Shown here piece by piece: positions 26,430 to 42,594 of a stretch of DNA of 64,000 bases (position 1 is its first letter; each line of letters opens with the position of its first letter). The translations under genes and the position numbers were made by a program. The stretch covers positions 11,819 through 75,818 of IMG/VR virus record IMGVR_UViG_3300044541_000063. The stretch is one strand, 5' to 3'. This DNA is from a virus. Lineage: Duplodnaviria > Caudoviricetes. The notes beneath the pieces are model-generated. The model had not been told where the DNA came from. It did not search any database and saw only the letters and a program-made list of their open reading frames with translations.

Positions 26430-29400
26430 ATGTCTGTGAGCAACGTTCACCCGCTTCCGGGCCGCGTCGACAGTCCTATCCTGGACACGCTCGTCAACTT
26501 GCTGTCGGGTCTCGGCACGGCCAAGGACAAGAGCACGTCGACGCAGTTCACGCTGCAGATACTCGATCCTGGACAGCTGCTAGCCGCGTATCGCGGCGAC
26601 TGGGTAGCGCGCAAGATCATCGACTGTCCAGCGCAGGACTCCACTCGCGAGTGGCGCTCGTGGCAGGCCGACAAGAAGGACATCACCGAGATCGAGAAGA
26701 CCGAGAAGGACCTCAAGCTCCAGTCGAAGGTCAAGGTCGCCATGCAGCGCGCCCGTCTGTGGGGCGGCGCGGCTCTCATCCTCGGCGTGGACCAGGGCTC
26801 GCATGACAAGGAGCTCAAGGTCGATCGCGTCAGGCAGGGTCAGCTGAAGTACGTTCACGTGGTGAACAAGCAGGACATTCAAGTAGACGGCGGCCTCGAC
26901 CTCGACGTCACGTCCGAGTTCTACGGCGAGCCTGTGTCGTACACCGTCAACAGTCCGAAGACCGGCATAGTCAAGATCCATCCGTCGCGCGTCATCAGGT
27001 TCCTGGGCAACGAGATCCCCGACATAAACCTGTCGCAGGACGGATGGGGCGACAGCACGCTGCAGAGTATCTACGACGCGGTGATACAGGCCGGGCAGAC
27101 CGCCGCCAACGTGGCCAGCCTAGTGAACGAGGCCAAGATCGACGTCGTTCAGATACCGGGCCTCATGCAGATGATGGGGACGCAGGAGTACCGCGCGAAG
27201 CTCATCGAGAGGTTCACGCTTGCGAACTCTATGAAGTCCCTCACCAACACTCTGATCCTCGACGGCGAGGAGGAGTGGAACAGGCTCAACGCGTCGTTCG
27301 CAGGTCTGCCAGACATCATCCGCATGTATCTGCTCATGGCCAGTGGTGCCGCTGACATTCCCGCCACGCGTCTACTCGGTCAGTCCTCTTCGGGCCTCAA
27401 CGCCACTGGCCAAGAAGATACTCGCAACTACTACGACAGGCTGGCGAGTGAGCAGACCAACGACCTCACGCCTCGCCTGGACAGGCTCGACGAGGTGCTG
27501 GTACGCAGCACCTTCGGCGACAAGCCCGAGGAGATGACGTACGACTGGAACTCGCTGTGGCAGCTGTCCAAGACCGAGGCCGCAGACGTGGCGGTGAAGA
27601 AGGCCACGGTGTACACGGCAGACGTCAACGCCGGGCTGCTCCCACCGGAGGTCATGCGCGAGGGTCGCGAGAACCAGCTCATCGAGGATCAGGTGTATCC
27701 CGGCCTCGAGCAGGCCATCGACGAGTATGGCCAGCAGAACCTCGACGAGTACAATCAGGCCGTCGTCGCGCAGATGGGCGCGCGCGCCGCTCTCATGGCG
27801 CCGGACGATCCCAACGACCCGAACGGCGGCAAGAAGAAAGCAGCTGCGGCCAAAGCAGAGCTCACTCGCCGCAAGGCTCTACCTCCGCCGCGTCCCCCGG
27901 CTGCGCGCTCGCAGGACTCGCGAGAGAGGGTTGTCTACACGTCCAATCCTAGAGGCGATGGTAGTGACTGGCTCTTCGCGTTCGACAAGGCCAACGCGGC
28001 CATCTGGAAGGACGGAGGTCCTTACCCAGAGCCGAGGTTCGCAGAGGACGAGACCACGCCTCGCAGCCTGTACGTGCGCCGCGACGTGCTCAACGGCGAG
28101 GAGATACTCGCGCACTTCGCAGAGCAGGGCGTCGACGTGAGCGGTGTCGAGCCGGAAGACCTTCACGTCACCGTGTTGTACTCCAGGCAGCCCGTCGACT
28201 GGATCAAGATGGGCGAGTCCAGCTACGGTCAGATCGGGCGCGGCGAGGACATGCCTGAGGGCTGCGACATGTGCGTGCGCGCCGGCGGACCGCGCGTGAT
28301 GGAGGCGTACGGCGTTCCTCCCGACACGCTCGTCATGTGCTTCGCGTCGAGCGCGCTGTGCTGGCGTCACCAGGACATGGTCTATAAGGGCGCGAGCGAG
28401 GACTACGAGTTTAGTCCGCACCTGAGCATCGCTCCGTGGGACGGCACCGACCCGCGCACGTACGAGGCGTTTCAGGGAGAGATCGAACTCGGCCCGGAGA
28501 TCTTCGAGCCGTGCAAGTCGGGCGGCGCCGGGGGCGAGGCGTACGACTACGACCCCTCCGAGCCGCGCGCGCAGGCCGGTACGGCGTTCGGCGGACAGTG
28601 GACACGCGAGGGTGCCGCGGCGGCGCGGCAGTCTCGAATCGACAAGACCCTGGCGACGCGGAGCGAGAGAGCTAAAGGCGACGTTGGCGCGCGTCTCAAG
28701 CGCACGCGCGAGGCCGCAGTGGCCAAGTCCAAGCGCGTCACGGCAGCTGCCGTGCACAAGGCAGTCGCGTTCCTGAAGAACAACGAGAGGCGCTCGAAGA
28801 GCATCGGCGCGCTGGCTGCGTCGCTGTCTGGCATGCTCGCAGGCGTCGACCACGTCACAGAGGCCATGATTCATCAGGCGGTGTCGGACTTCTCGTCTAC
28901 GCTGGGCGTCACTGTCGCGGTGGGACGCACCAAGATGCGCGAGGCCCTCAACAAGGCCATCAAGATACGTCGCGGTCTCACGGGCGACGCGGAGGAGCCT
29001 GAGGCCGAGGACGAGGTTCTCCAGACGCTGCTCGCGCTGCTGAAGATGCTCGACGCCACTGCCGCAGACGCCCTCATCAAGGACTGGCGCGGCACTGTCG
29101 GCGACTACAGTCCAGATCAGCCGCGCGTGCCGAGAGGCAGCGAGGGAGGCGGTCGCTTCGCGACCAGCGGCGGTGCGTACACGGGCGTTCTCGAGAAGGC
29201 CGGCATGTTCGTGAGGTTCGTCAAGGCCAGGCGACTGGAGTCTGGTCGCGGCTACAACGCGTTCTACAAGAAGAACGACTTGAACCCGTCGGGCAATCCG
29301 CAGACCGTAGAGGTCGGTCAGCAGGTGCGCGGCGTGAAGGGCAAGTGGAACAAGAACACCGACCACGCCGGCGACTACGCGGCCGGCTCGGGCTGGCTGC

Positions 29401-29714
29401 TGCTGCAGGAGTTCTCGGAGATGGGTCGGTTCGCCGATCAGTTCTGGAGGGACGCCGCTCAGTTCATGACTCCCGGCGAGTACGAGCGCGCCAAGCCGTA
29501 CTTCAGCACGCGCACCAGGGCATTCGTAGAGGGCTTCCGCGCCACGTACTCTCCGAACGGCAAGGCGTTCGGCCTGAGCAGGGCGCGCACGTCCGAGGTG
29601 TTCGGCAGGGCCACGTCGAACATGTCGTCGGGCATCGACCAGATATTCGCGCCTCCCAAGCCGGGTCTCATCGAGCGCACCGGCGAGCGCATCGCCAAGT
29701 TCTTCGGAGTGTAG
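26430..29714 (+). CDS. Portal protein (DUF1073/HI1409 family) fused to an Acb1-like 2H phosphoesterase and two tagged unknown domains
   Basis: N-terminal ~440 aa portal (YRGDWVARKIID, AADIPATRLLG); LHVTV/PHLSI 2H motifs; two D-Y-x-P-x2-PR..GG-x-W/F tags. Confidence 0.9.
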   Translation: MSVSNVHPLPGRVDSPILDTLVNLLSGLGTAKDKSTSTQFTLQILDPGQLLAAYRGDWVARKIIDCPAQDSTREWRSWQADKKDITEIEKTEKDLKLQSKVKVAMQRARLWGGAALILGVDQGSHDKELKVDRVRQGQLKYVHVVNKQDIQVDGGLDLDVTSEFYGEPVSYTVNSPKTGIVKIHPSRVIRFLGNEIPDINLSQDGWGDSTLQSIYDAVIQAGQTAANVASLVNEAKIDVVQIPGLMQMMGTQEYRAKLIERFTLANSMKSLTNTLILDGEEEWNRLNASFAGLPDIIRMYLLMASGAADIPATRLLGQSSSGLNATGQEDTRNYYDRLASEQTNDLTPRLDRLDEVLVRSTFGDKPEEMTYDWNSLWQLSKTEAADVAVKKATVYTADVNAGLLPPEVMREGRENQLIEDQVYPGLEQAIDEYGQQNLDEYNQAVVAQMGARAALMAPDDPNDPNGGKKKAAAAKAELTRRKALPPPRPPAARSQDSRERVVYTSNPRGDGSDWLFAFDKANAAIWKDGGPYPEPRFAEDETTPRSLYVRRDVLNGEEILAHFAEQGVDVSGVEPEDLHVTVLYSRQPVDWIKMGESSYGQIGRGEDMPEGCDMCVRAGGPRVMEAYGVPPDTLVMCFASSALCWRHQDMVYKGASEDYEFSPHLSIAPWDGTDPRTYEAFQGEIELGPEIFEPCKSGGAGGEAYDYDPSEPRAQAGTAFGGQWTREGAAAARQSRIDKTLATRSERAKGDVGARLKRTREAAVAKSKRVTAAAVHKAVAFLKNNERRSKSIGALAASLSGMLAGVDHVTEAMIHQAVSDFSSTLGVTVAVGRTKMREALNKAIKIRRGLTGDAEEPEAEDEVLQTLLALLKMLDATAADALIKDWRGTVGDYSPDQPRVPRGSEGGGRFATSGGAYTGVLEKAGMFVRFVKARRLESGRGYNAFYKKNDLNPSGNPQTVEVGQQVRGVKGKWNKNTDHAGDYAAGSGWLLLQEFSEMGRFADQFWRDAAQFMTPGEYERAKPYFSTRTRAFVEGFRATYSPNGKAFGLSRARTSEVFGRATSNMSSGIDQIFAPPKPGLIERTGERIAKFFGV

Positions 29715-29715
29715 C

Positions 29716-30057
29716 ATGCTGATGTATCGCGTGTCGCCTCTGTCAGACGGCAAGATGGGCGTGCAGCTCATAGACGGGGACTTCGTCACCGAGGTGGTCG
29801 GCGACGACGCCGAGGGGCTCAGGCCCGGCTACTACAACGACCACGGAGTGCTCATTCGCTCCCTGAGTGACGAACCAGTGGTGTTCGAGAAAGGTGGACA
29901 GCGTGCACACTCTCAGATGGAACCCGTCGATCATGCGGTGGATCGTGGAGTTCGTCGCGCAGGGCAGGCAGACGACTATCGGCTTCCTCGAAAAGGGGCA
30001 AGACGCCGTCGATCTGGTAAACTGTCTAAACGGCGGACAGCCGGCGGCGGTTACTGA
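29716..30057 (+). CDS. Hypothetical protein
   Basis: Starts 1 nt after the portal stop; 3' part overlaps the next ORF, so extent is uncertain. Confidence 0.4.
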   Translation: MLMYRVSPLSDGKMGVQLIDGDFVTEVVGDDAEGLRPGYYNDHGVLIRSLSDEPVVFEKGGQRAHSQMEPVDHAVDRGVRRAGQADDYRLPRKGARRRRSGKLSKRRTAGGGY

Positions 30058-30151
30058 GGATCCGCGCGGCGGCAAGCTCGGCGTGACGCCGGGCGTCAGC
30101 GACGCCGACCTGATGAAGCAGCTGGAGACCGAAGAGGCTGCTACGAAATAA
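29867..30151 (+). CDS. Hypothetical protein (94 aa)
   Basis: Globular-looking sequence; start uncertain. Confidence 0.45.
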   Translation: MTNQWCSRKVDSVHTLRWNPSIMRWIVEFVAQGRQTTIGFLEKGQDAVDLVNCLNGGQPAAVTEDPRGGKLGVTPGVSDADLMKQLETEEAATK

Positions 30152-30226
30152 CAGAGGGACTCCAGCGAGAGTCTCCGGTACGGAAGGGGCGAGGAAACTA
30201 ATCCTCACAACATGGGAGTTAGGACA

Positions 30227-30991
30227 ATGCGATTTCTTCTTGCTATCGTTCTCGGCGCCTTCGGCACTGCCGCGTTCGCGGCCGACATGCCGCTCAAGGC
30301 GCCGCGCGCAGCACCAGTCGTCGTCGACGGCTGGCAGGGACTCTACGTCGGCATCCAGGGCGGCGAGAACCTCGGCTCGTACAATCCGCTGTTCGGCGTC
30401 GGCGACGTGGCCACGAAGGTCAACCTCGACGACAACGCGCCGTTCGTCGGTGCTCACATCGGCTACCTGTTCGGCGACACCATCTACTTCGGCCCAGAGC
30501 TCGGCGTTCAGTACTGGAACTTCAAGAAGAAAGGCGATCTGGTGGCCGGCACGCCAGAGATTCCTCCGAGCGAGGAGCTTCCGGCCATCGCCGCGACGCC
30601 GGCCGTGCAGCTGCAGCAGACCATCGACTGGATGGTCTACGCCAACGTTCGTGTCGGCGCCTCGCTGATCCCGAACACTCTGATCTACGTCACGGGCGGC
30701 GCCGCGTGGGCGCACGTGCGCGGCGAGATTCTCAACGGCGGCACGCTGGGCGCGCTGTCGGCGTTCGACCAGGGCGTTCTCGGGTGGAACGTGGGTGCCG
30801 GCCTCGAGTTCAAGCTCGGACCTAACCTCGTGCTCGGCGCCGAGTATCGGCACATGGACTTCGGCAAGGTGTCGCCGGCTAATCCAGCGCTGGCTCTCAT
30901 CGGGCTGGCACCGGCCGCACTCACGGTCGATCAGGCCATGGGGCGTCTGTCGTGGCGCTTCGCTCCTGGCGGCGGCTACGCTCAGTACTGA
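30227..30991 (+). CDS. Outer-membrane beta-barrel protein, Omp25/Omp31/RopB family
   Basis: Signal peptide ending AFA-ADMPLKAP, WQGLYVGIQGG, GWNVGAGLEF, GAEYRHMDFG, C-terminal LSWRF. Confidence 0.9.
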   Translation: MRFLLAIVLGAFGTAAFAADMPLKAPRAAPVVVDGWQGLYVGIQGGENLGSYNPLFGVGDVATKVNLDDNAPFVGAHIGYLFGDTIYFGPELGVQYWNFKKKGDLVAGTPEIPPSEELPAIAATPAVQLQQTIDWMVYANVRVGASLIPNTLIYVTGGAAWAHVRGEILNGGTLGALSAFDQGVLGWNVGAGLEFKLGPNLVLGAEYRHMDFGKVSPANPALALIGLAPAALTVDQAMGRLSWRFAPGGGYAQY

Positions 30992-30992
30992 C

Positions 30993-32492
30993 GTGCTACT
31001 GACTTCGCACCACCGCTGCGTCCGGCCGCGCCTTGGGGTCGCGGTCTCAGACGCGGCGCGCGCGCGAACCGACCCGACGGGCACTGCTCCTATCGCCTCC
31101 CGATGGGACGCAGAGTTCGCCAGGAGGTTCGCGCGCGTCAAGCGCGTGCTGCACGAGGTGATCGTGACACGCGACACGCTCGGAATAAGCGACGATCTCA
31201 AGAAGAGGGTAGACGCATCAGTCGGGGGAGCGACCAGGGCGCAGCGCGCGGCGCGCGCCCTGGACCTCGTTCGCTCGGCGGTGCACTCCGAGATTCTGGG
31301 CTCCCCCGGCTACGCCGACTCGTGGCAGAACAAGTTCGTCGCGATGGCCGTGACCAAGGGCGTCACCGACGCGTACCGGCGCATGAAGCAGGCCGGCATG
31401 GACGTGACCCTGGAGCTCACGGTGGACGTCGGCATAGGCCAGTCGGCGCAGCGGCGCGCGGACTTCATCGCTCAGCAGAGCTACGATCTGCTCGAGGGCA
31501 TCGACGCCGACATGGCGGCGCAGATGCAGGACATCATTCAGCAGGGTCTCCTGGACGGCAAGAGTCCGCAGCAGATAGCGCGCGAGCTTGACCAGGAGCT
31601 GGACATCGGTCGCACGCGCGCGCGCACCATAGCGCGCACCGAGACCATCGGCGCTCACGCCGACGCAACGCTCGACTCGTACGAGGAGGGCGGCATCGAG
31701 GGCGTTCAGGCCGAGGTGGAGTTCGCCACGGCCGGTGACGACAACGTCTGTCCGCAGTGTCAAGCGCTGGAGGGCAGTACCTACACCATCGAGGACGCGC
31801 GCGACGTCATTCCAGTGCACCCGAACTGTCGGTGCGCTTGGTTGCCGGTGATCGCCAGCACCGCGGACGCAGTCACCATAGACTACGACCCGAGCGAGCC
31901 GCGCGTGCCGGCCGGCAGTGCCGAGGGCGGCGAGTGGACCAGCGAGGGCGGTGCTGGCAGCGCGCCGGGAGTCGAGGGCAGCGGCGGCGACGCGTCTAAG
32001 CAGAGAGCGCTCGACGTGGCCAAGGAGCTCAAGTTCTCTCCCAAGAAGATGGAGTTCTCCGACGAGAACAAAAAGTTCTCAGTGGCCGGCAAGCGCATGA
32101 CGAAGGGCGGCGAGTACGACCCGGCTACCGGGAAGGTGACGTTCTTCTCGCACAACGTGAGTCCGGAGGACGCCGAGCTGATAGCGGCGCACGAGATCAC
32201 CCACTCGATGTATCACGACTACTTCGGCTCCGAGGGATACCAGGAGCCGCTGATACATCTGTTCGGCAGCTACGCCACGTTCGCCAGGGAGGGCGGCGTC
32301 GACGAGTACAGCAATCAGTGGTGGAAGGCTGTCGGCGAGGGAAGGGCCAGACCTGAGCAGGCCATAAACGAGACGCTCGCGTCCATGGCCTCCATTCAGT
32401 ACACCACCGGGAAGGTGGTCGGCGGCCCCGAGCATCAGGCGCTGCTCAAGAGAATACAGCGCTATCGCGGCGTGAGCGGGACCAAGAAGTGA
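30993..32492 (+). CDS. MuF/SPP1 gp7-like head morphogenesis protein with a tagged C-terminal zincin metallopeptidase
   Basis: DPTGT start, IARTE, ATAGDDNVCPQC..HPNCRC; tag DYDPSEPRVPAG..GGEW; AHEITH..NETLA. Confidence 0.9.
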   Translation: MLLTSHHRCVRPRLGVAVSDAARARTDPTGTAPIASRWDAEFARRFARVKRVLHEVIVTRDTLGISDDLKKRVDASVGGATRAQRAARALDLVRSAVHSEILGSPGYADSWQNKFVAMAVTKGVTDAYRRMKQAGMDVTLELTVDVGIGQSAQRRADFIAQQSYDLLEGIDADMAAQMQDIIQQGLLDGKSPQQIARELDQELDIGRTRARTIARTETIGAHADATLDSYEEGGIEGVQAEVEFATAGDDNVCPQCQALEGSTYTIEDARDVIPVHPNCRCAWLPVIASTADAVTIDYDPSEPRVPAGSAEGGEWTSEGGAGSAPGVEGSGGDASKQRALDVAKELKFSPKKMEFSDENKKFSVAGKRMTKGGEYDPATGKVTFFSHNVSPEDAELIAAHEITHSMYHDYFGSEGYQEPLIHLFGSYATFAREGGVDEYSNQWWKAVGEGRARPEQAINETLASMASIQYTTGKVVGGPEHQALLKRIQRYRGVSGTKK

Positions 32493-34894
32493 GTGTTCGT
32501 CGCACCAAGGTCAACGGCGAGAGCGTTCTGCTGGCGCAGGTCAGTCCGACTCTGTGGAAGGTCGTGTATCCAGACGGCCGCGCGGTGTTTCTGGTTCCTG
32601 AGGCGGAGGCGAACGATGGCATCAGCTGGCACGAGGAGGATCACCCGCGAGGCGAGGGCGGCAAGTTCGCCACCGTCGGGCACGAGTCTCTTACTGGGCA
32701 GGAGCAGCAGAGTATCTACTACTACGCGCGACAGGCGTATCACGGACTGAACCGCAATCTTCGCCTCGGTCTGGGACTCAGCGAGCAGCAGGAAATTTGG
32801 AAGCGCGACCTCGACTCGGCGCTGGAGAAGTCGACGCTTGCGCAGGACATGACGGTCTATCGTGGCTTCGGCAACATGAAGCTCATCCGCGACATGAAGG
32901 AGGGAGACGTTCTCCGCAACGCCGCGTACACGTCGACTGCTCCAGACGCGAGGACCGCAACCTCGTTCAAGGACTTCAGCGAGGGTCTCCTGGAGATCTC
33001 GCTGCCGGCCGGCACCAGGGCGCTCGACGTGCATCGGGTCTCGAGCATGGAGCCGGAGATTCTGCTTCCTCGCGACACTTCGCTGAGGTACGTGGGCAGA
33101 GGTGAGCCGGCCGGTGTTGGCAGCGCGCCTGCGCGCACGTATAAGTTTGAGCTCGTGGCCAGCAGCGTCAGGGACTGGAGTCCCTTCCAGCCTCGCGTGC
33201 CGAAGGGTCAGTCTGGCGGCGGGCAGTGGTCCGGGGAGAACCTGACCAAGGCCGAGAGGGCCGAGGTGCGATACTACACTGGCGACGGGTTCGAGCACGT
33301 CAACTCGACGCTGCGGCAGGGCGAGGCCGGCATGCTCGACCGACTGCATCTGCTGGACAGCGCCGTGGCCAAGTCGGTCATAGACAAGAGCATCACGACG
33401 TATCGCGGCGTCAACAGCGCCGAGTTCACCGAGAAGCTCGACTCGCTGCAGCCGGGCGAGACCATCACCGACAGGGCGTTCACGTCTACGTCGGGCAGCT
33501 TTCTGTCGGCGGCCATGTACGGTGGAGTAGGATCCCCGACCATGGAGATCAGGATTCCGTCTGGCAGCAGCGTGCTCTACGCCGAGAGCATGAGCGCCAA
33601 CTCCGGAATAGGCGAGGAGGAGTACCTTCTGCCCCGCGACTCGACGTTCAGGTACGTCGGCTCGAGGACTGTGGGCGGCGGTGCCGGCGCCTCGAAGGGA
33701 AGCAAGGTCTACACGTTCGACCTAGTGCCGCGCGTTGTCAAGGACTACGACCCGAGCGAGCCGCGCGTACCGGCCGGGCAGCCGGGCGGCGGACAGTGGC
33801 AAGGCCAGAATCTGGGCGATGACGAGAAGAAGCAGGTTCGTTTCTACACGCGCAATGGATACACTCCGATTAATAAGTCCTTGCGCACTGGTACCGGGCC
33901 AGAATACCTGAAGGACGTCGTCGCGACGATAGACAGTGCCATCGCGAAGTCGGTGCTGTCGAGCGACACTGTCGTCTATCGTGGCGTTAACGCAGTGGGA
34001 TTCGTTAGCGCTTTAGGTGCCCTCAAGCCGGGAGACACGATCACTGACTCAGCATACGTGTCGACTTCTGGTTCGTTGGCGTCCGCTGCGACGTTCGCAG
34101 GAACATACAACACGGTGATGGAGGTCAGGCTTCCGGCAGGCAGCAACGCACTCTATGTCGAGGAGTTCAGCGGAAGCAGTGGTCAGGAAGAAGATGAATA
34201 TATTCTGCCGCGCGGCACTAAGTTTCAGTACGTTACCAGCAGGGTCACCAGGACGAAGAGGACTATCTACACGTTCGACCTCGTGCCGCGCGGCGCGGCC
34301 GACTGGAACCCATTCCAGCCGCGCGTTCCCGCGGGGCAGCACGGCGGCGGCGAGTGGACCGAGGGCACCAGCGGCACGGCAACCGGATCTCTCGTCGGCG
34401 GCAATCCCAAGAAGGGCTTCGACCCGAAGCACGTCGACGCGCTCAAGCAGTACGCTGCCAGCATCTATCAGCCGGTGAACGAGGGTCTGCGCAACAAGAC
34501 GAAGCTGCGGACCCAGGAGGAGCAGGTCGTTTTGGCACTCGACGAGGCGTTCGAGCGCAATCAGCGTACCACCGAGGTGATGCAGCTGTTTCGCGCGGCG
34601 GGCGAGGAGTTCGCGGCCTACGTGGACGCACTCAAGGTCGGCGACAACCTGATAGACGAGGGATTCGCGTCGACCACCACCGACGAGAGACTGGCGCGCT
34701 CGTTCCTCAGCGGGCAGCCGGGCGAGAAGAAGGTGATGGTTGAGATCGTCCTTCCGAAGGACTCGAAGGCCATCGACACGTCGCCGTTCAATCCCTTCAA
34801 GGGAGAGAACGAGGTGCTGCTGCCGCGCAACACCACGTTCAAGTATCTCGGCATGGAGCGAGACGTGTATCGCTTCAGGGCCAATCCAAGGTAG
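32489..34894 (+). CDS. Polyprotein of four tandem ADP-ribosyltransferase (VIP2/C3/Alt-like, R-S-E) domains, each preceded by the tag
   Basis: YRG/YRG/YRG/FRA, TST/TST/VST/AST and EPE/EEE/EDE/ENE-x-LLPR motifs. Confidence 0.9.
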   Translation: MSVRRTKVNGESVLLAQVSPTLWKVVYPDGRAVFLVPEAEANDGISWHEEDHPRGEGGKFATVGHESLTGQEQQSIYYYARQAYHGLNRNLRLGLGLSEQQEIWKRDLDSALEKSTLAQDMTVYRGFGNMKLIRDMKEGDVLRNAAYTSTAPDARTATSFKDFSEGLLEISLPAGTRALDVHRVSSMEPEILLPRDTSLRYVGRGEPAGVGSAPARTYKFELVASSVRDWSPFQPRVPKGQSGGGQWSGENLTKAERAEVRYYTGDGFEHVNSTLRQGEAGMLDRLHLLDSAVAKSVIDKSITTYRGVNSAEFTEKLDSLQPGETITDRAFTSTSGSFLSAAMYGGVGSPTMEIRIPSGSSVLYAESMSANSGIGEEEYLLPRDSTFRYVGSRTVGGGAGASKGSKVYTFDLVPRVVKDYDPSEPRVPAGQPGGGQWQGQNLGDDEKKQVRFYTRNGYTPINKSLRTGTGPEYLKDVVATIDSAIAKSVLSSDTVVYRGVNAVGFVSALGALKPGDTITDSAYVSTSGSLASAATFAGTYNTVMEVRLPAGSNALYVEEFSGSSGQEEDEYILPRGTKFQYVTSRVTRTKRTIYTFDLVPRGAADWNPFQPRVPAGQHGGGEWTEGTSGTATGSLVGGNPKKGFDPKHVDALKQYAASIYQPVNEGLRNKTKLRTQEEQVVLALDEAFERNQRTTEVMQLFRAAGEEFAAYVDALKVGDNLIDEGFASTTTDERLARSFLSGQPGEKKVMVEIVLPKDSKAIDTSPFNPFKGENEVLLPRNTTFKYLGMERDVYRFRANPR

Positions 34895-34907
34895 AAGGAG
34901 GACCACC

Positions 34908-35066
34908 GTGGCGAAGAAAGTGAAGAAGCAGTCAGAAGAGGAGGCTCGTCGCCGATTCGGCGAGCGTATCACGGAGCAGACCGGCGAGGGTCTGATAATC
35001 GAGCGCCAGGACGGTACGCGCGAGCGCATCGGCAAGGGCGGCAAGCTCGAGAAGATCGAAGACTGA
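34908..35066 (+). CDS. Small charged protein (52 aa)
   Basis: AAGGAGG RBS before GTG. Confidence 0.6.
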   Translation: MAKKVKKQSEEEARRRFGERITEQTGEGLIIERQDGTRERIGKGGKLEKIED

Positions 35067-35067
35067 C

Positions 35068-35514
35068 ATGAGCATTCCGACCGCTCTGTCTCCCTCGCGC
35101 GGGTGGGAGCAGATGAAGGATTTCGCGTCGGCGATGAAGTCCGAGGCACTCGCCATGAAGGACGTCACGTTGACGGGAACATGCACGTCGGCTCAGCTCA
35201 TTGACTATCTGCAGCGGCTCGTCGCTTTCAAGGAGGTGTTCGTCGCGATCGGAAACGTGCCGGGCATCGCAGTCTACGCGCAAGAGCAGGTGAACAATCC
35301 GTCGTTCAACATCGCGACTGAGTTCACGACGATGCTGAACGCGGTCGACGGTGCGGGAGGCTGGCTCATCGCCAACTTCCCGAAGGACGGTAACGGGTTT
35401 CTGCTCGCGCAGACACTCGACGGCGCCGGACATCTCGTGCAGCGCACGTTCACCTCTGCCACGCTGCTGCCGTTTCGTACCACGCTCGACACGCTGATCG
35501 CGACTGTCAGCTAG
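35068..35514 (+). CDS. Hypothetical protein, probably virion-associated
   Basis: Coupled ORF in the head module. Confidence 0.7.
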   Translation: MSIPTALSPSRGWEQMKDFASAMKSEALAMKDVTLTGTCTSAQLIDYLQRLVAFKEVFVAIGNVPGIAVYAQEQVNNPSFNIATEFTTMLNAVDGAGGWLIANFPKDGNGFLLAQTLDGAGHLVQRTFTSATLLPFRTTLDTLIATVS

Positions 35515-36191
35515 TGGCTGTCGCGTTTGACGCAGCGTCCAGCTCAAGCTCGCTTGCTCAACCTGCGAGCATAACGTGGTCGCACACGTGCACCGGGGCG
35601 AACGGGTACCTGCTCGCCATCATCGGCCTGACGTCTGGTACGCTCGGCAACGTCACGGCTTGCACCTACAACGGCGTCTCCATGGGCACGGCCCTGTGGA
35701 ACGCCACCGTCGGCGGGATTCGCTGCGTCGCGTTTGGCCTGAAGGCTCCCGCGACCGGCGCGCACAACATCGTGGCGACCATCACGTCAGCCAACGACGG
35801 CGTGAGCGCCATGGGCGTCTCATTCACCGGCGTCGACCAGACCACTCCGACCGGCACTGCCAACACCGCGACGAACGGTTCGGCGTCTACGGCGACAGTC
35901 AACATCACGTCGGCGGCCGGCGAGCTGGTGGTCGACGGGCTCGCGGTCGGCGCCACCGGCACGGTCACGGTCGGCGCCGGGCAGACGCAGCGCAACAGCG
36001 TCGTCGTCGTTGGCGAGCACTCTGGAAAGTCGTCGGAGGAGGCGGGCGCGGCGTCCGTAACGATGTCGTGGTCGTGGGCGACAGGCGCCGTCTCGTACGC
36101 GATGGGCGGTGTCTCGCTCAAGCCGGCCGCAGCTGGCGGTCAGGTTCCCTATCAGCCTCACTATCAGCTCGCTCCACTTCTAGCACACTGA
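35514..36191 (+). CDS. Beta-rich Thr/Ala/Gly virion protein (fibre/decoration-like)
   Basis: Composition and position; ends in QPHYQ..L. Confidence 0.65.
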   Translation: MAVAFDAASSSSSLAQPASITWSHTCTGANGYLLAIIGLTSGTLGNVTACTYNGVSMGTALWNATVGGIRCVAFGLKAPATGAHNIVATITSANDGVSAMGVSFTGVDQTTPTGTANTATNGSASTATVNITSAAGELVVDGLAVGATGTVTVGAGQTQRNSVVVVGEHSGKSSEEAGAASVTMSWSWATGAVSYAMGGVSLKPAAAGGQVPYQPHYQLAPLLAH

Positions 36192-36198
36192 GGACTGC

Positions 36199-36519
36199 AT
36201 GTCGGACACTCTGGACCCTCGCCTGTTCCCGTTCATGCGTCGCCCCAAGGGCGAGCAGACCCACGAGACTGAGGCCTACGTCAGCATTCCTCCTGCTCTC
36301 ATGATACAGGACGGGCAGGGCAACATGTGGACTCTGGGCTTCGACCAGGGCGGCTGGCGCACGGGCGAGTTCGAGTTCGACGTCGTCGTCGCGTCGCCGC
36401 CGGACTTGAAGCCGCGCAAGACCGGCGAGATGGCCTGTCGCATCGAGTATCGGCAAGGCAAGGTTCGCATCTACGGGTCCGATAGGTGGCGAACGTGGAA
36501 CGGACGGACCTTCGTTTGA
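36199..36519 (+). CDS. Hypothetical protein (106 aa)
   Basis: GAGGA RBS. Confidence 0.65.
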   Translation: MSDTLDPRLFPFMRRPKGEQTHETEAYVSIPPALMIQDGQGNMWTLGFDQGGWRTGEFEFDVVVASPPDLKPRKTGEMACRIEYRQGKVRIYGSDRWRTWNGRTFV

Positions 36520-36556
36520 AACTTCATCGCTCTACTGAAAGAAGGAGACTGAAACT

Positions 36557-37054
36557 ATGCGTGAGTTCGCCCTGTCTGCTGGAGGCGCGGCTGGTCTTAC
36601 CGTTCTCGGTGCCACCACGCTCTTGTTTCTCAATCCGACCGCAGCCCCGAACCTGAACATCGAGTTCACTCGGTTCTGGATCGGTCAGGCTGCGAACGCC
36701 ACCTCGGCGCAGCAGCGCGCTCAGCTCGAGACGCAGGTCACCGCGTTTCCGACGCTGGTGTCTGCGACGCCGGCCAAGCTCAAGCGCGCTGATCCCAACG
36801 CGTCCATCATCACGGGCGGCACGGCGGGCGCGGCTGGCACCAGCGGAGTCAACGCGTCTGCAGAGGGTGCCGGCGCCAAGACCGCCATCTTCGACGACGT
36901 GTTCAACGTGCTGAACGGCTGGCTGCACGTGCCGACTCCTCCTGAGACCATCATCATGCCGGCCGGCTCAGCGTCTGGACTCGGTCTGTTTTTTCCGGCT
37001 GCACCGACCACGCTCACTGGATGGGCGTTCGGTACAATATTCCGGGAGGTCTAG
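36557..37054 (+). CDS. Hypothetical beta-sandwich virion protein (165 aa)
   Basis: AAGGAG RBS; structural-protein composition. Confidence 0.65.
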   Translation: MREFALSAGGAAGLTVLGATTLLFLNPTAAPNLNIEFTRFWIGQAANATSAQQRAQLETQVTAFPTLVSATPAKLKRADPNASIITGGTAGAAGTSGVNASAEGAGAKTAIFDDVFNVLNGWLHVPTPPETIIMPAGSASGLGLFFPAAPTTLTGWAFGTIFREV

Positions 37055-37060
37055 GAGTTC

Positions 37061-38734
37061 GTGGCCGGATCAGTCTACCGCGTACCGCCGCCGGTCTTCG
37101 TCGGCGGGCAGCAGCCCTATCAAGCAAGGGACCTGTCGCCCGCCTTCGAGGCGGTGCCTGTAGACGCGCCTCCAGTCAGGAGGGCGCAGCCGCCGTTTCA
37201 CTCGTCGTGGTGGGCCGTCGCGCTGTCGCCTCAGCAGCGCTCGGACTCTGACATGTCGTCCGGGATACCGGGGCAGTCGGTTGACAATCCGCCAGCTGCT
37301 CGCTCGACCATTCCATCGTCGGCGTGGTGGCTGAGCACTCCAGCGCCGACGCAGCTACGAGATCTCTCGCCTGGAATTCCTGGCCAGTCGGTGGACAATC
37401 CACCGGCCGCGCGCTCTGCCGTGCCGCCCTCGGCGTGGTGGCTCACGGTACCAACGCCGACGCAGCTGCGCGACATGGCTCCGGGAATCCCGGGTCAGTC
37501 GGTAGACAATCCGCCCGGCCTGCAGGCGCGCACTCCTGCTCCGCAGCCGGTTCCGTTCTTCGACGTTCAGCGCCGCTATCTCGTGCAGGAGTTCGTCGCC
37601 GCTGCGGCGGACAGCACGCCCTTCGCGCGGGTCGTTGACAGTGTAATTCGCTCGTGGCAGCGCGAGCAGCCGCTTCCGACACTGCCGAGACTGCTGAGTC
37701 CCTCCATCACCGCGGTGCCGGAGGACTCGCCGATTCCGATGCACGCCGGTCGCACGCCGCTGCAGGTGCAGCTCACGGCGTGGTTCGCGGGCGTGCTGCC
37801 GTACCGACCGGCTCAGTTCGTCACGCACACTGCGGCACCTCCTGGATGGTCGGTCGACGACCCTCCACGCTTCAGGGCGTTCGTCGTTCCGCCGCAGCCG
37901 CCGACTCCGCTTCAGGTGCAGTACCCGAAGCTGGTTCAGGAGAGCGTGGCTGCAGCTGCGGCCGATCAGTCGTACGCGCGCGAGACTCTGGCGCTGCGGT
38001 GGTGGGTGGTCCAGGCGGCTCCCCCGGTGCTGCCGCGCCTGCTCTCGCCCGGCGTGCCGGGGCAGTCCGCAGACGCGCCGCCTCCTGCGCGACTGCAGCA
38101 GCCGGCGGCCGTGCACTACGCCGCTCAGCCGCTCGCGCCAGTGCGGCAGCAGCTGTCGCCCGGCATACCGGGCCAGTCGGTGGACCCGCCGCCGTCCATA
38201 GTCTCGCGCATGCCCGCGCGCGCGTGGTACGACGGTCTGTATCCCGGCGCGCAGCGCCAGCCGGGGGCTGCGGCGCTTGCTCAGCAGGCGCAGGTGGACT
38301 TTGCGCCCGTGTCGCTGCGAGGTGCGGGCTGGAGCGTCGCTCACTGGTTCGCGCCGTACGTGGCGCCGCAGCGGCATCGGCCGCTGTTTCCTGCGGCTCT
38401 CGCGGTGCGGGTCGACGATCCGCCCTTCGACGCTCGGCGTCTGGGGCGGCTGGCCAGCATCATCGCGCGGGCGCAGATACCGACGCCCGACAGGGTCTAT
38501 CTGCGCTACGAGGTGCAGGAGGGACCGGCGTTTACTCTGCTGACGCTGGTCTGCGGCAGCATCACGATCAGCGCCTCGACGAACGCACTCTTGTCGACCG
38601 CGCCAGCCGTGCTGGCTGCTACGTCTACGACACCAGTCGCTTCTGCCGCTCCCTCGTCCGCGCCGGCAACTTCGGCGGAGACGTCGACCGAGCCGGCAGT
38701 GGGCGGCGAGCCAGGAATAGAGATCTGCGAGTGA
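37061..38734 (+). CDS. Pro-rich repetitive protein (PGIPGQSVDNPP repeats)
   Basis: AGGAG RBS before GTG; tandem ~37-aa units plus degenerate copies. Confidence 0.7.
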   Translation: MAGSVYRVPPPVFVGGQQPYQARDLSPAFEAVPVDAPPVRRAQPPFHSSWWAVALSPQQRSDSDMSSGIPGQSVDNPPAARSTIPSSAWWLSTPAPTQLRDLSPGIPGQSVDNPPAARSAVPPSAWWLTVPTPTQLRDMAPGIPGQSVDNPPGLQARTPAPQPVPFFDVQRRYLVQEFVAAAADSTPFARVVDSVIRSWQREQPLPTLPRLLSPSITAVPEDSPIPMHAGRTPLQVQLTAWFAGVLPYRPAQFVTHTAAPPGWSVDDPPRFRAFVVPPQPPTPLQVQYPKLVQESVAAAAADQSYARETLALRWWVVQAAPPVLPRLLSPGVPGQSADAPPPARLQQPAAVHYAAQPLAPVRQQLSPGIPGQSVDPPPSIVSRMPARAWYDGLYPGAQRQPGAAALAQQAQVDFAPVSLRGAGWSVAHWFAPYVAPQRHRPLFPAALAVRVDDPPFDARRLGRLASIIARAQIPTPDRVYLRYEVQEGPAFTLLTLVCGSITISASTNALLSTAPAVLAATSTTPVASAAPSSAPATSAETSTEPAVGGEPGIEICE

Positions 38735-38743
38735 GGAGACTAG

Positions 38744-39052
38744 ATGCCCGTGTATCTCAGCAACACGAATCTGCTGCAGCTCAAGGACCTGAGCAAGGAG
38801 ACCGACGGGTCGGCGATCGTCGGTGCCGCAGTGGCGGTGACCGTCAACACGAAGGCCGGCGCGCAGCTGGCGGGAGCGGCGTGGCCGCAGAACATGATAG
38901 ACATCGGTGGCGGCGACTACGAACTGTCGCTGCCTCCCGCTCTCGCGTGGGTCGAGGGCGGCGAGTACGTCGCGGTGATAGACGCGACGACGCCGGCCGG
39001 CATGGGGCACTGGGAGTATCACTTCAAGGCGCAGAGGCGAACCACCTCGTAG
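38744..39052 (+). CDS. Ig-like/BppU-N-like virion protein (102 aa)
   Basis: GAGGAG RBS; alternating beta-strand pattern. Confidence 0.6.
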   Translation: MPVYLSNTNLLQLKDLSKETDGSAIVGAAVAVTVNTKAGAQLAGAAWPQNMIDIGGGDYELSLPPALAWVEGGEYVAVIDATTPAGMGHWEYHFKAQRRTTS

Positions 39053-39066
39053 CGAAGGAGAGAGCA

Positions 39067-39288
39067 ATGGGAATGATCGAGAGAGTCATACGCGCGCTGC
39101 TGTATCTGTGCTGCATCGCGATCTGCTACTACCTGATCGTGTGGGTGCTGGGCGTGCTCGGAATTCACATTCCTCCGAACATTCTCACTATTCTCATGGT
39201 GATGTTCGCGCTCATCGCCATTCTGGTTCTGGTGCGACTCTTCTACCCGTGGGCCTCTAGTCAGAACTGGTGGGGCGACAGGCCGTGA
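39067..39288 (+). CDS. Two-helix membrane protein (73 aa)
   Basis: AAGGAG RBS; two long hydrophobic segments. Confidence 0.7.
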   Translation: MGMIERVIRALLYLCCIAICYYLIVWVLGVLGIHIPPNILTILMVMFALIAILVLVRLFYPWASSQNWWGDRP

Positions 39289-39752
39289 GCGAGCCGACCG
39301 CGTTCGCGCAGCACTCGACGCGTGATCTGAAGAACATGCTTCTCGGCGAGGTGTCGAACTTCGGCGAGAAGCCCGACGACGAGCTGCAGCGCGCGCTCGG
39401 TGTCGCCTACAAGATCGTCGGCGCGCGCGGGCGCGGTATCGAAGACCTAAGCCTCCTGCTGGCGCGCGCGGTGGTGCGCCTCAGCAGCGGCAAGGTGGAG
39501 GAGGTCGAGCAGGAGCGCCAGCGCGACGCCCTCCGCGTCGAGGGCGCGGTGCACGCCACCGCGCGCGAGGCTCAGCTGGCCGAGGCGCGCGAGAAGATCA
39601 GGACGATGATGCGCCAGCACGCGCACGTGTCGTCGGAGAGGGAGCAGGTCATCGAGCTGATGCTGGCCATGCTCTCTAACAAAGACCATCGCATCAGCGA
39701 TCACCCCGAGTGGATCTTGGAGCTCGGGAGACTGTCGGGAGCCACAGAATGA
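39285..39752 (+). CDS. Helical hypothetical protein
   Basis: Coupled ORF; coiled-coil character. Confidence 0.6.
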   Translation: MSEPTAFAQHSTRDLKNMLLGEVSNFGEKPDDELQRALGVAYKIVGARGRGIEDLSLLLARAVVRLSSGKVEEVEQERQRDALRVEGAVHATAREAQLAEAREKIRTMMRQHAHVSSEREQVIELMLAMLSNKDHRISDHPEWILELGRLSGATE

Positions 39753-40150
39753 ACAGGCGCAACTTTCTGCTCAAGGGAATGGCGGCGCTGGCACTGCCGG
39801 CAATTGCCGAGCCGTTTCAGCCGTTGCTGCTAGACGGGACCGGAGACTACGCGACAGTAATCTGCGACGACAGGTATCTGTTCGGTGGTGACTGGACCCT
39901 CGACATGTGGATCAGAAGGCCGAGCGAAGAGAACACGGTGGTCTCAGACCTGACTCTTACGTTCGACCTTCCTGCCGGGAAGGTTCTTGACTGGGACAGC
40001 GTGCGCGTAGTCATTCAGAAGCACGAGAAGGAAGTTCCGGTCGACTCGGACTGGCATCACCTGTGTGCGCACGGCGGCCGCTTCTTCGTCGACGGAGTCG
40101 AGGAGCGTCCACTCGTGATAACGGACGAGAGCGTCGCAGAGACGGCGTGA
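39749..40150 (+). CDS. Protein with a Tat-like signal and a miniature LamG-like domain
   Basis: MNRRNFLLKGMAALALPAIA; LDGTGDY, DWTLDMWI, WHHL, FVDGV. Confidence 0.6.
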   Translation: MNRRNFLLKGMAALALPAIAEPFQPLLLDGTGDYATVICDDRYLFGGDWTLDMWIRRPSEENTVVSDLTLTFDLPAGKVLDWDSVRVVIQKHEKEVPVDSDWHHLCAHGGRFFVDGVEERPLVITDESVAETA

Positions 40151-40248
40151 CGGCGGTGAGGTGGCTCGCAGGTCTCCTCAGGCGACTCTTCAGGCGCAAG
40201 CCCTCGTACGAGTGGATGCGCGACGACTATCCGTGGAGGTGACCAGAC

Positions 40249-42051
40249 ATGAATAAGACCAAGCGCGCCAAGGCAGGCGACAACTGGGACGAGAGCGCTC
40301 ACCCGCGCGCGCCGAAGGGCGGCGCCGGGGGAGGGCAGTTCGCAGGAGGCCAGACTGCGGGCGGCATCGACCAGGGCGAGGTCGGCTCCGGCTGGCATCC
40401 AGAGAAGGACAACACCTACGCCGGCCGCAAGCCGGACGAGGCGAAGTTCGGGCGCAGCAACGAAGACTTCAGCCTGACCGACGAGGACGAGCAGTTCGTC
40501 GAGGACCACGGCGAGGCGTTCGTGCCGGTGCTCAACGAGCTGTTCCAGGAGTACGATGCCGCGCCTGCAGACGTCGAGAATTTCATGGAAGAGATGAACC
40601 TCAGCGACAGCACCGACACGGCGGCAGCCGACGTCCTCACGGCGTTTCACAACAGCTACGTCGGCACGTTCGAGGACACCGATGCGGCGGCGGAGAACTT
40701 CATTCACGAGACGTACCCGCGCCTACCGAAGGCGTTCACCGACGCCATCAGCAGAAGCGACCTCAGCGACAGTCTGTTCTACAACAAGGGCTCGCCGTAC
40801 GCTGCTGTCGAGTCTGACAGTGGCGAGTACATGGTCTTCAAGAAGCCGGCGTCGATGGTCTCGCGAACCAAGGACGCGAAGCCGCTGGCGTTCGAGGTCG
40901 ACAGCGTGAACCTGGAGAACACTCTGCAGCTGATCGGAGTCAACGACGACGGCGCCGCGCTGGTGCTCGACGAGGGCGCGAACATCCACCGCACGGCTGA
41001 CGGCTATCTGGCGGCCTTCCCCCGGATAGCCAGAACCGGAATTCAGGTCTATCGCGGCTACGAGATGGGCGCTCCCGACAAGGACAAGGTGCGCATCTAC
41101 AGGCCGGAGAGCGAGGTCTTCGCGCCCGACAGCCTGCGGTCGTACGCGCACAAGCCCGTGACCAACGACCATCCGAAGGAGGCGGTCACCAAGGACAATT
41201 GGCGCAAGTACGCCGTCGGCAACATGGCAGACGAGATCATGCGCGACGGCGGGTTCGTTCGCATTCCTATGATGATCTCTGACGGCGACGCCATCCAGGA
41301 CGTCGAGGACGGCAAGCGTGAACTCTCGCTTGGCTACACGATGGACCTCGACATGACGCCGGGCAAGACGGAGGACGGCGAGTCCTACGACGGGGTCATG
41401 AGAAACATACGAGCCAATCATCTGGCGCTGGTCACCGCCGCCAGAGGTGGAAAGGAACTCAGGGTCGGTGACTCAGGAGAAGGAGCTATCATGAAGAAGA
41501 TCGTAGTTGACGGCAACACCATCGAGGTCGACGACGTTGCGGCCGTCATCGTTCCGAAGCACATCGCGATGCTGGAGAAGAGCACCGCCGACGCAGCCAC
41601 CGCCCTCAAGGTCGCGCAGGACAAGACGGCTGCCGACACGGCTACCATCGCCACCCTGACGGCCGAGAACGCGACCCTGGTGAAGAAGGTCGCCGACGCG
41701 AAGCTCTCGCCGCAGCAGATCGAGCAGCTGGTGCGCGACCGCGCCGTGGTCGTCACTCAGGCGCGCGCCGTGCTGCCGACCGTCGTCACCGACAGCCGCG
41801 AGCTCTGCGACATTCGTCGTCAGGTCGTGGACGCTGCCATGGGTGCCGCGGCCAAGGGCTGGAACGACGAGCAGGTCGCGTCGTCCTTCGCCGTTCTCAC
41901 CAAGGACGTCGACACCAGGGCGAACGAGACTCAGGACAGTCTCAGGACTGCTCTCAGCCAGCCTGGTCCTCGAGTCGACGCGCGCGACGCGGCGTACGGC
42001 GAGTACGAGAACAAGCTGACCAACGCCTGGAAGAAGCCGGTCGCCGCCTAG
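40249..42051 (+). CDS. Head maturation protease/scaffold (DUF2213) with an N-terminal tag and ArdA-like acidic domain
   Basis: IARTGIQVY, VYRP-like RIYRPESEVF, KPVTNDHP, ELSLGY, NHLALV..ARGG; coiled-coil scaffold C-terminus; N-terminal WDESAHPRAPKG..GGQF. Confidence 0.9.
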   Translation: MNKTKRAKAGDNWDESAHPRAPKGGAGGGQFAGGQTAGGIDQGEVGSGWHPEKDNTYAGRKPDEAKFGRSNEDFSLTDEDEQFVEDHGEAFVPVLNELFQEYDAAPADVENFMEEMNLSDSTDTAAADVLTAFHNSYVGTFEDTDAAAENFIHETYPRLPKAFTDAISRSDLSDSLFYNKGSPYAAVESDSGEYMVFKKPASMVSRTKDAKPLAFEVDSVNLENTLQLIGVNDDGAALVLDEGANIHRTADGYLAAFPRIARTGIQVYRGYEMGAPDKDKVRIYRPESEVFAPDSLRSYAHKPVTNDHPKEAVTKDNWRKYAVGNMADEIMRDGGFVRIPMMISDGDAIQDVEDGKRELSLGYTMDLDMTPGKTEDGESYDGVMRNIRANHLALVTAARGGKELRVGDSGEGAIMKKIVVDGNTIEVDDVAAVIVPKHIAMLEKSTADAATALKVAQDKTAADTATIATLTAENATLVKKVADAKLSPQQIEQLVRDRAVVVTQARAVLPTVVTDSRELCDIRRQVVDAAMGAAAKGWNDEQVASSFAVLTKDVDTRANETQDSLRTALSQPGPRVDARDAAYGEYENKLTNAWKKPVAA

Positions 42052-42111: not shown

Positions 42112-42594
42112 ATGGGAGTTCTGCAGACTACCTACGTCGAGCGCATCTCGCAGGCGGTTGCCGGCATGATCGCCGACATGTCGAAGTCGAACGTCGACAC
42201 GCGGTCTGTCGAGACCGTGGCCGGCATCGGCTTCGGCCTCGCGTGCGGCAAGGCCGTGGACGACAAGGGCGTCGTTCTCGGAGCCACGCTCACGACCGAC
42301 TTCGTGGGCATCTCGGTTCGCGACATCACGTTGCCGCCGATCATCGGTGCTACCGTGGACGTCTATCCTCGGTACTCGAGCGCCGGCATCCTCACCGAGG
42401 GCGATATCTGGGTTATCGTGGGCGGCAACGTCGTCGATGGCGGCATCGTCACCTACAACAACGTGACGGGAGTCCTCTCGTCCATCGCACCGGCCGCCGG
42501 TCAGTTTCTGGTGATCGGTGGCCGCTGGATGACCACGGCTCTCAGCGGCGCACTCGCCGTCGTTCGCCTCACCGGTCCACTCGGGGCGGTGTAG
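42112..42594 (+). CDS. Head decoration/cement protein
   Basis: Between protease and major capsid; GIGFG..GISVR..GDIWV pattern. Confidence 0.8.
   Translation: MGVLQTTYVERISQAVAGMIADMSKSNVDTRSVETVAGIGFGLACGKAVDDKGVVLGATLTTDFVGISVRDITLPPIIGATVDVYPRYSSAGILTEGDIWVIVGGNVVDGGIVTYNNVTGVLSSIAPAAGQFLVIGGRWMTTALSGALAVVRLTGPLGAV

Follow-up and report, generated by a model that had tools for sequence, protein, structure and literature searches.

A portable peptide tag heads exchangeable cargo modules in phage head loci and probably labels proteins carried inside the capsid

Introduction

Why should the head proteins of a single phage carry the same short peptide eight times, each time in front of a non-structural module? 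The question is raised by IMG/VR record IMGVR_UViG_3300044541_000063, a complete 75.8-kb (75,818-bp) phage genome with terminal repeats, of which bases 11819-75818 were analysed as one stretch of 64,000 nucleotides (hereafter the window). An earlier note on the window had described the peptide, here called the tag, as a portable signal for prohead loading and/or for cleavage after an Asp by a DUF2213 protease, which would turn structural genes into polyproteins that release counter-defence effectors upon infection. Apart from T4, P1, N4 and a small number of further phages, little is known about which phage proteins are carried in the capsid and injected. They form the first line of counter-defence, toxins included. 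A label for such cargo would let injected effectors be predicted from metagenomes, would give a handle on their loading and release, and could itself serve as a small tag with which to bring proteins into phage particles. Here we show that the tag is real and widespread, and we found no published description of it. Comparisons of sequences indicate that it marks the junction at which cargo cassettes are exchanged, and its probable role is that of a so far undescribed label of capsid-borne proteins.

Results

Eight tags in four head-module proteins

The tag is a motif of about 20 residues, predicted to be disordered, with the core Q/E/H-P-R-x-P-x-G-x3-G-G-x-W/F, usually with K/D-[YFW]-[DNS]-P-[DNS] ahead of it. 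All eight copies listed in the earlier note were present where it had placed them (Table 1). Its observation of the motif in head proteins, and not in tail, replication or early proteins, likewise held: a hidden Markov model (HMM) built from the eight copies and run over all six frames of the 75,818-bp genome matched exactly these eight, all within four head-module proteins, and the next best score was negative. Six of the eight are canonical ([YW]-x-P-x-[QE]-P-R-x-P-x-G-x3-G-G-x-[WF]) and scored 31.8-44.4 bits with a profile built mainly from other phages; the same profile reached at most 2.7 bits over 20 triplet-shuffled genomes, and the reversed genome scored -3.5 at best. The other two copies belong to an HPR...GG.F subtype (32615/32624 and 40279/40282) and lay at noise level with the other-phage profile. 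We regard them as genuine variants, because near-identical copies ('WDES.HPR.P.G...GG.FAGG') recur at module boundaries of tagged polyproteins elsewhere (L256) and a stand-alone homologue of the ADP-ribosyltransferases (ARTs) described below (P0155) carries an intermediate HPR form. Each of the eight copies stands at a domain boundary, and an Asp lies directly before the aromatic residue in six of them and two to four residues upstream in the other two, as had been pointed out.

The tag is widespread and conserved as a peptide

A degenerate DNA pattern for PRVPxGxxxGGxW retrieved at least 120 stretches from IMG/VR. Of the 142 in-frame matches listed, about 138 had the form '[KR][YF][NSD]P[DN][QE]PRVPAG..DGGQWT' and continued into a glycine-rich linker. 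When a profile of 127 instances was compared with 1.84 billion representative proteins, 5,363 protein clusters matched at E<=1e-3; a cut-off of 1e-10 left 1,085. Polyproteins with up to 11 tags, spaced about 150-350 residues apart, ranked highest, and the segment following a tag had a median length of 262 residues. Conservation across 461 profile-found tags was 90% for Q, 90% for P, 99% for R, 94% for the second P, 98% for G, 96-98% for GG and 97% for W/F. Third codon positions of the window's copies vary freely (0.30-0.85 identity) while the peptide is kept, which indicates that it is the peptide, not the DNA, that is under selection. In structure prediction the tag behaves as a disordered linear motif. 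The AlphaFold2 (AF2) model of an isolated tag had a predicted local distance difference test score (pLDDT) of 73 and no secondary structure, and was not informative; in a tag-ART-tag model, the ART core reached 83-95, and both tags stayed below 50 and were not docked on the ART.

Among bacterial species genomes, about 106 of 130 matches to the canonical PRVP form were true tags, nearly all of them in Hyphomicrobiales and relatives. The alphaproteobacterial holders include Bosea, Methylobacterium, Rhodoplanes, Devosia and Xanthobacteraceae (Xanthobacter among them), with the tag on small open reading frames (ORFs) in HK97-like modules. True plasmids lacked the tag, the only two matches falling in replicons of 2.8 and 4.6 Mb (Methylobacterium, Shinella). 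Tag peptides gave no Pfam match at E<=10, nor does any Pfam model span the tag; a profile search of the PDB gave no match at E<=10, and text searches for QPRVPAG and PRVPxG returned no papers. The earlier statement that no function has been described for the motif is thus consistent with the databases and papers searched.

Tags coincide with the break points of cargo exchange

Pairs of tagged proteins that were similar only upstream of the tag numbered 342, against 54 that were similar on both sides, and the upstream parts were up to 99% identical though the downstream cargo was unrelated. Moreover, the final 50-200 residues of a tagged portal recur as the opening part of 26 small tagged ORFs, four of which adjoin the full portal gene. 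Orphan cassettes were seen in the relatives L017, L061, L084 and L243, and not in the window. Stand-alone ART genes carry a tag at their start and none at their end, and many polyproteins have a tag within their first 30 residues; the mobile unit therefore consists of tag, glycine-rich linker and domain. Two further arrangements were observed. Three ORFs of no assigned function (L028:517-1383, L125:1938-2534 and L068:289-956) end in the tag core (...QPRVPAGSPDGGQWTK, then the stop), and the portals of L009, L043 and L123 stop about 40-65 residues past the tag, with a short and sometimes Cys-rich tail. Here, then, tags are exposed with hardly any cargo or none.

Carriers are head proteins and cargo is mostly of effector or toxin type

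Every carrier identified in the examined samples was a phage-head protein. Portal fusions, from four Pfam portal families, accounted for 35 of 125 tagged IMG/VR ORFs; the others included RNAse_A_bac (13), barnase, Zeta toxin, CdiA_C, deaminases, ARTs, MuF and S78 protease. Multi-tag proteins hold ART-PolyVal, ADPrib_exo_Tox, GNAT, NUDIX, Acb1, PARP, Zeta toxin, topoisomerase IB, ChaB, Gln_amidase, MuF and portal domains. Overall, carriers and cargo identified by Pfam were head proteins or effector- and toxin-type enzymes, with a few oxidoreductase-type families besides in multi-tag proteins, and thousands of tagged modules have no known domain. As a side observation, type IB topoisomerase (5 of 70 representative proteins), ChaB and pyridine-nucleotide oxidoreductases are unusual candidates for packaging.

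Tagged genes follow the order TerL-portal-MuF-[tagged genes]-protease-capsid or, in Xanthobacteraceae, portal-S78-[tagged]-capsid-[tagged + DUF2019]. Most sampled tagged loci are HK97-like, with portal, S78 protease and capsid, and the polyprotein loci L252 and L256 have S78_2 proteases. The earlier note had named, as support for its reading, an HMM search that finds the tag enriched in DUF1073 portal, MuF and DUF2213 loci upstream of variable effector domains. Enrichment was indeed strong in portal, MuF and other head-module contexts, with variable cargo, and absent from the relatives of the DUF2213 protein (0 of 80).

Several of these loci have features of their own. Tagged toxins have a DUF2019 gene behind them in both L152 and L230, and the DUF2019 (HEAT-like) gene after the second tagged ORF of L152 looks like an immunity gene. 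In this Xanthobacteraceae locus (L152:2384-3231), a tagged ORF is followed by an RNAse_A_bac fragment in another frame, either a decayed toxin cassette or a frameshifted gene. In a 102-kb metagenome contig (L250:1-20993), seven tags lie at or near the starts of consecutive genes, including two ARTs and an ATLF-type zincin, downstream of a glycosyltransferase, methyltransferase and acetyltransferase block and an Acb5-like gene.

Cleavage after Asp by a DUF2213 protease is not supported as a general mechanism

The proposal that the DUF2213 protein is a protease that cuts each tag after the preceding Asp was not supported as a general mechanism. Across the 461 tags, the residue before the aromatic is Asp in 5% and Lys in 52%. 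S78 homologues were present in 41 sampled tagged loci, DUF2213 homologues in none. A single-sequence search found no close relatives of the PF09979 (DUF2213) protein, an alignment search found 573, and none of the 80 IMG/VR loci checked among these (L257-L336) had a tag within +/-10 kb of the PF09979 gene; the lineage of the window phage therefore seems to have imported tagged cassettes. PHROGs labels the family a protease. For Pa193 gp24, the one member that has been studied, the description is of a putative scaffold retained in the virion beneath the capsid vertices, with no protease activity reported (PMC11456595).

The residue before the aromatic is nevertheless, together with the W/F, the most lineage-specific position of the tag: its excess agreement within proteins was 0.53, compared with roughly 0.2-0.27 for other variable positions. 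Every one of the 12 tags in two independent DUF2213-type phages (the window; L254) has an Asp at -1 or -2 or, in a single case, at -4. In S78_2-type loci, most tags have a Lys in position -1 or -2 instead. Because tags within one protein are paralogues, this agreement is partly inherited. Judged by these patterns, the Asp is a lineage-specific feature, not a general property of the tag, and possibly the recognition residue of the lineage's processing enzyme, and cleavage at Asp by DUF2213 is at best a lineage-specific detail.

The tagged units of the window phage are additions to a known head module

The head-module backbone of the window recurs in two cultured relatives, RHEph04 of Rhizobium and phiPSA1 of Pseudomonas, which have neither tags nor add-on modules in it. 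Their portal+2H protein ends at the point where tag 1 starts in the window, their MuF protein is short and their PF09979 protein lacks the N-terminal extension. All tagged units in the window are therefore additions, and a backbone head module of the E217/Pam3/RHEph04 type has gained eight tag units. The window shows a plain RHEph04/E217-type head module equipped with eight add-ons of anti-CBASS-type (CBASS, cyclic-oligonucleotide-based anti-phage signalling system), ADP-ribosylating, peptidase-like and unknown kinds.

Table 1. Tags, cargo modules and head-module genes of the window (positions in the window; aa, amino acids).
Feature	Position	Strand	Remark
TerL	24583-25956		head module
Portal polyprotein (1094 aa) made up of portal domain, Acb1-like 2H domain and two units of tag plus module	26430..29714	+	
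Acb1-like 2H domain, portal aa 546-696	28065-28517	+	PF23474, 69.5 bits vs cut-off 27
Tag 1 (DYDPSEPRAQAGTAFGGQWT)	28545..28604	+	
Cargo module A	28605..29102	+	no Pfam match below E 0.03
Tag 2 (DYSPDQPRVPRGSEGGGRFA)	29103..29162	+	
Cargo module B	29163..29714	+	no Pfam match
113-aa ORF	29716-30057		
Outer-membrane beta-barrel (OMP) gene	30212-30991	+	PF13505, E 1e-12, signal-peptide-like N-terminus
MuF-tag-zincin-like protein	30993..32492	+	likely start GTG 30993
Tag 3 (DYDPSEPRVPAGSAEGGEWT)	31881..31940	+	
Cargo module with HEITH (32190-32204), candidate zincin metallopeptidase	31941..32492	+	
Polyprotein of four C3-like ARTs, a tag heading each	32489..34894	+	ADPrib_exo_Tox
Tag 4, short HPR subtype (DGISWHEEDHPRGEGGKFA)	32615..32671	+	
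Tag 5	33173..33232	+	
Tag 6	33743..33802	+	
Tag 7	34301..34360	+	
About 5 kb of genes without family matches	about 35068-40150	+	
PF09979 (DUF2213 / Pa193 gp24-like) head-interior protein, N-terminal tag and acidic domain, C-terminal scaffold-like region	40249..42051	+	
Tag 8, HPR subtype (NWDESAHPRAPKGGAGGGQFA)	40279..40344	+	
Acidic cargo module after tag 8	40345..40989	+	
Cement protein	42112-42594		
Major capsid protein	42637-43590		PF09950

The backbone proteins were assigned by family. Phage_portal_3 covers residues 49-396 of the portal polyprotein (Pfam, E 1e-104); Phage_Mu_F (PF04233) matches at 31521-31838 with 59.2 bits (cut-off 29.6), the GTG start of the MuF gene being set by the alignment register of PHROG 758 and by sequence reading; and in the PF09979 protein, DUF2213 matches residues 248-409 (E 2e-53) and PHROG 530 residues 245-597. 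The cargo is only partly what the earlier note had proposed. Four ARTs were confirmed: ADPrib_exo_Tox covers four stretches of one ORF (Pfam, E 1e-84), and in the ART alignment R87, S114, T115 and E159 are invariant and E157 is present in at least 90% of the sequences. The units thus show the R, S-T-S and E-x-E motifs and the C3 fold of R-S-E ADP-ribosyltransferases, the AF2 model of the ART core having C3larvin and C3bot as its best Foldseek matches (E 5e-12). The module on MuF has a HEITH sequence, matches Peptidase_M78 at E 0.17 only and has weak BLAST relatives within other tagged polyproteins, which makes it a candidate zincin at most. An ArdA-like domain after tag 8 found no support, with no Pfam match at E<=1, no usable ESM Atlas match and no ArdA similarity. 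The earlier note had missed an Acb1-like domain (anti-CBASS 2H phosphoesterase), which is fused straight to the portal ahead of tag 1 and is itself untagged; isolated phages of Rhizobium, Pseudomonas and cyanobacteria share the portal+2H fusion as such. At least two effector-type domains can be counted per polypeptide (four ARTs; portal, Acb1 and two modules; MuF and the zincin-like module). In the close relative L253, the arrangement is MuF-tag-ART-ART versus MuF-tag-zincin-like in the window. No immunity-like family was found in the window, where the ART polyprotein is the next gene after MuF.

Two neighbouring regions carry no tag. The OMP gene is inserted between the portal region and MuF, with its stop 2 bases before the likely MuF start, and looks like an alphaproteobacterial-type moron, possibly acting in superinfection exclusion or altering the host surface. 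The genes at 35068-40150 have no Pfam or PHROG family, save for one weak 'minor tail' match, and may encode untagged virion or cargo proteins; in the corresponding place, RHEph04 has an esterase-like 548-aa gene.

Discussion

We lean slightly towards reading the tag as a portable header of capsid cargo, that is, as an exchange junction that is also an address and/or processing label. By analogy, its function would most likely resemble that of the T4 capsid-targeting sequence. The tag would be recognised during head assembly or maturation, and the modules would be placed inside the capsid and could be freed from their carriers. It would head effectors, toxins and anti-defence enzymes on or next to the portal C-terminus, the MuF C-terminus and the scaffold/protease, as well as in free polyproteins. 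Processing is suggested because a module fused to the portal would be stuck in the capsid unless it is cut off, and an address role because single-module genes keep the tag at their extreme N-terminus, where there is nothing to cut it from. From the portable loading and/or cleavage signal of the earlier note, we thus retain a portable element that heads non-structural cargo beside or on capsid-interior proteins, and drop, as a general mechanism, the cleavage at Asp by DUF2213. A bolder version holds that the tag is a general transferable code, necessary and sufficient for placement in the capsid, release and ejection, which may dock homotypically onto the tags of portal, MuF or scaffold; this version is tentative, and we consider it rather doubtful. 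If it were true, the sequences of uncultured phages could tell us which proteins they inject, and some 20 added residues could load foreign proteins into phage heads.

Several observations weigh against a header of capsid cargo. Modules fused to portal or MuF need no address, so that the tag may be redundant there. A lineage-specific receptor could hardly account for its occurrence with four portal families and at least three protease or scaffold families. Some ORFs end in the tag (L028, L125) and some portals carry little after it, and in the window about 5 kb of untagged genes separates the ART gene from the scaffold gene. Finally, tblastn with 34-aa tag peptides found no true tag in 50,697 records of cultured phages.

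Four other explanations were weighed. The break points of similarity at the tag and the orphan cassettes are what one would see if the tag were a neutral in-frame linker at which cassettes recombine, an evolutionary junction only, with no role in loading or processing; its disorder and its presence even where fusion makes an address needless fit this explanation as well. However, recombination needs DNA identity, yet the synonymous sites have diverged and it is eight amino-acid positions that are kept at 90-99% across thousands of clusters, and the tag is kept at extreme N- or C-termini, where nothing is joined, which makes a purely neutral junction unlikely. Hardly better placed is cleavage of the tag by a peptidase encoded in the cargo, such as the zincin-like module on MuF, instead of by the head-maturation protease. 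HExxH occurs in 39 of the 149 top tagged proteins, compared with 5 after shuffling, the window's MuF carries the tagged HEITH module, an ATLF-type zincin gene is among the tagged genes of L250, and Iyer et al. predict, in the text searched, that metallopeptidases process polyvalent proteins (PMC5512222). Nonetheless, about three quarters of tagged polyproteins lack HExxH, no zincin was among the genes scanned in small HK97-like alphaproteobacterial loci (portal-S78-capsid), and the zincin assignment in the window is weak, so that we give this explanation a small chance, if one marginally above that of a neutral linker.

Lower still do we place the original model, which has the DUF2213 protein acting as head protease and cleaving every tag behind the Asp that precedes it. 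The Asp at -1, -2 or -4 of all 12 tags in the window and L254, compared with 5% Asp at -1 overall, and the high lineage-specific agreement at this residue speak for it, the latter being partly inherited among paralogous tags of one protein. Against it, none of the 80 relatives is tagged, and in the tagged loci sampled the protease is S78 or S78_2 and the residue in question a Lys; the protease activity of PF09979 is unproven, its studied member being described as a scaffold (PMC11456595), and in the window's own protein the genome HMM search found no tag-like sequence where the PF09979 domain gives way to the scaffold-like tail. We think it equally improbable that the tag works after delivery, by binding a conserved alphaproteobacterial host factor or protease that frees, activates or localises the modules. 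The near-confinement of the canonical PRVP form to Alphaproteobacteria would fit such a partner, and the independence of the tag from phage head families points outside the phage. Portal-fused modules must, however, be cut before they reach the recipient, and the taxonomic restriction may reflect only the spread of one subtype.

Other readings of the motif were tried and rejected. The 'PD pretoxin domain' of Liberibacter toxins (PMC8557891) proved upon alignment to be a different, helical domain. Self-cleavage at Asn/Asp-Pro was discarded, the position being D/N/S in only 83% of tags and the next residue Pro in 74%, as was a DNA-level recombination site, since third codon positions vary. A TolB-box-like DG..W, an AT-hook-like PRxP and a double-glycine leader were considered as analogies and set aside; the Asp of 'DGGQW' is not conserved.

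The underlying system is known, in the form of polyvalent proteins, effectors fused to head proteins and MuF polymorphic toxins. The T4 capsid-targeting sequence stands on IPI-III and Alt, where the gp21 prohead protease cuts it off. It has about 10 residues, lies strictly at the N-terminus and is a feature of T4-like phages only. As a short portable peptide on non-structural, injected proteins, an ART included, it is our working analogy for loading and trimming. The tag differs from it in having no sequence similarity, in being internal and C-terminal as well as N-terminal, and in its occurrence across unrelated head types.

Effectors fused to portal, MuF or capsid peptidase were described by Iyer, Burroughs, Anand, de Souza and Aravind (2017, PMC5512222) and Iyer et al. 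(2022, PMC9503650), who, in the main text searched, predict packaging, injection and possible peptidase processing of polyvalent proteins. In line with these, tagged proteins are multi-domain effectors (ART, 2H/Acb1, NUDIX, GNAT, zincin) in the head module of portal-terminase phages, and the window's effectors are flanked by TerL, portal, MuF, PF09979, cement and capsid genes. That main text, as searched, describes no conserved peptide between modules; here, a single 20-residue motif punctuates every module and delimits the mobile unit. The tagged proteins have in common with MuF polymorphic toxins (Jamet et al. 2017, PMC5576092; Bxa and Apk2, PMC11699363) a head-protein carrier, a variable C-terminal toxin, a location in the head-morphogenesis region and, after some loci, immunity-like genes, and both the PF04233 domain and C-terminal variation among close MuF relatives (L253) are found for the window. 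The searched text of these two sources does not mention a junction motif, linker or cleavage. In contrast to MuF toxins, the carrier of the tag is more often a portal, several modules can be chained, and there are a junction motif and orphan cassettes.

With polymorphic toxin systems, the tag shares the placement of a short motif between a conserved delivery part and a variable toxin, and orphan cassettes that share the junction. Junction or pre-toxin motifs of this kind are VENN of CdiA and PxxxxDPxGL of Rhs. Zhang et al. (2012, PMC3482391) treat such polymorphic toxin systems. Compared with these, the tag has a different sequence, belongs to delivery by a phage head and stands also between modules and at protein termini.

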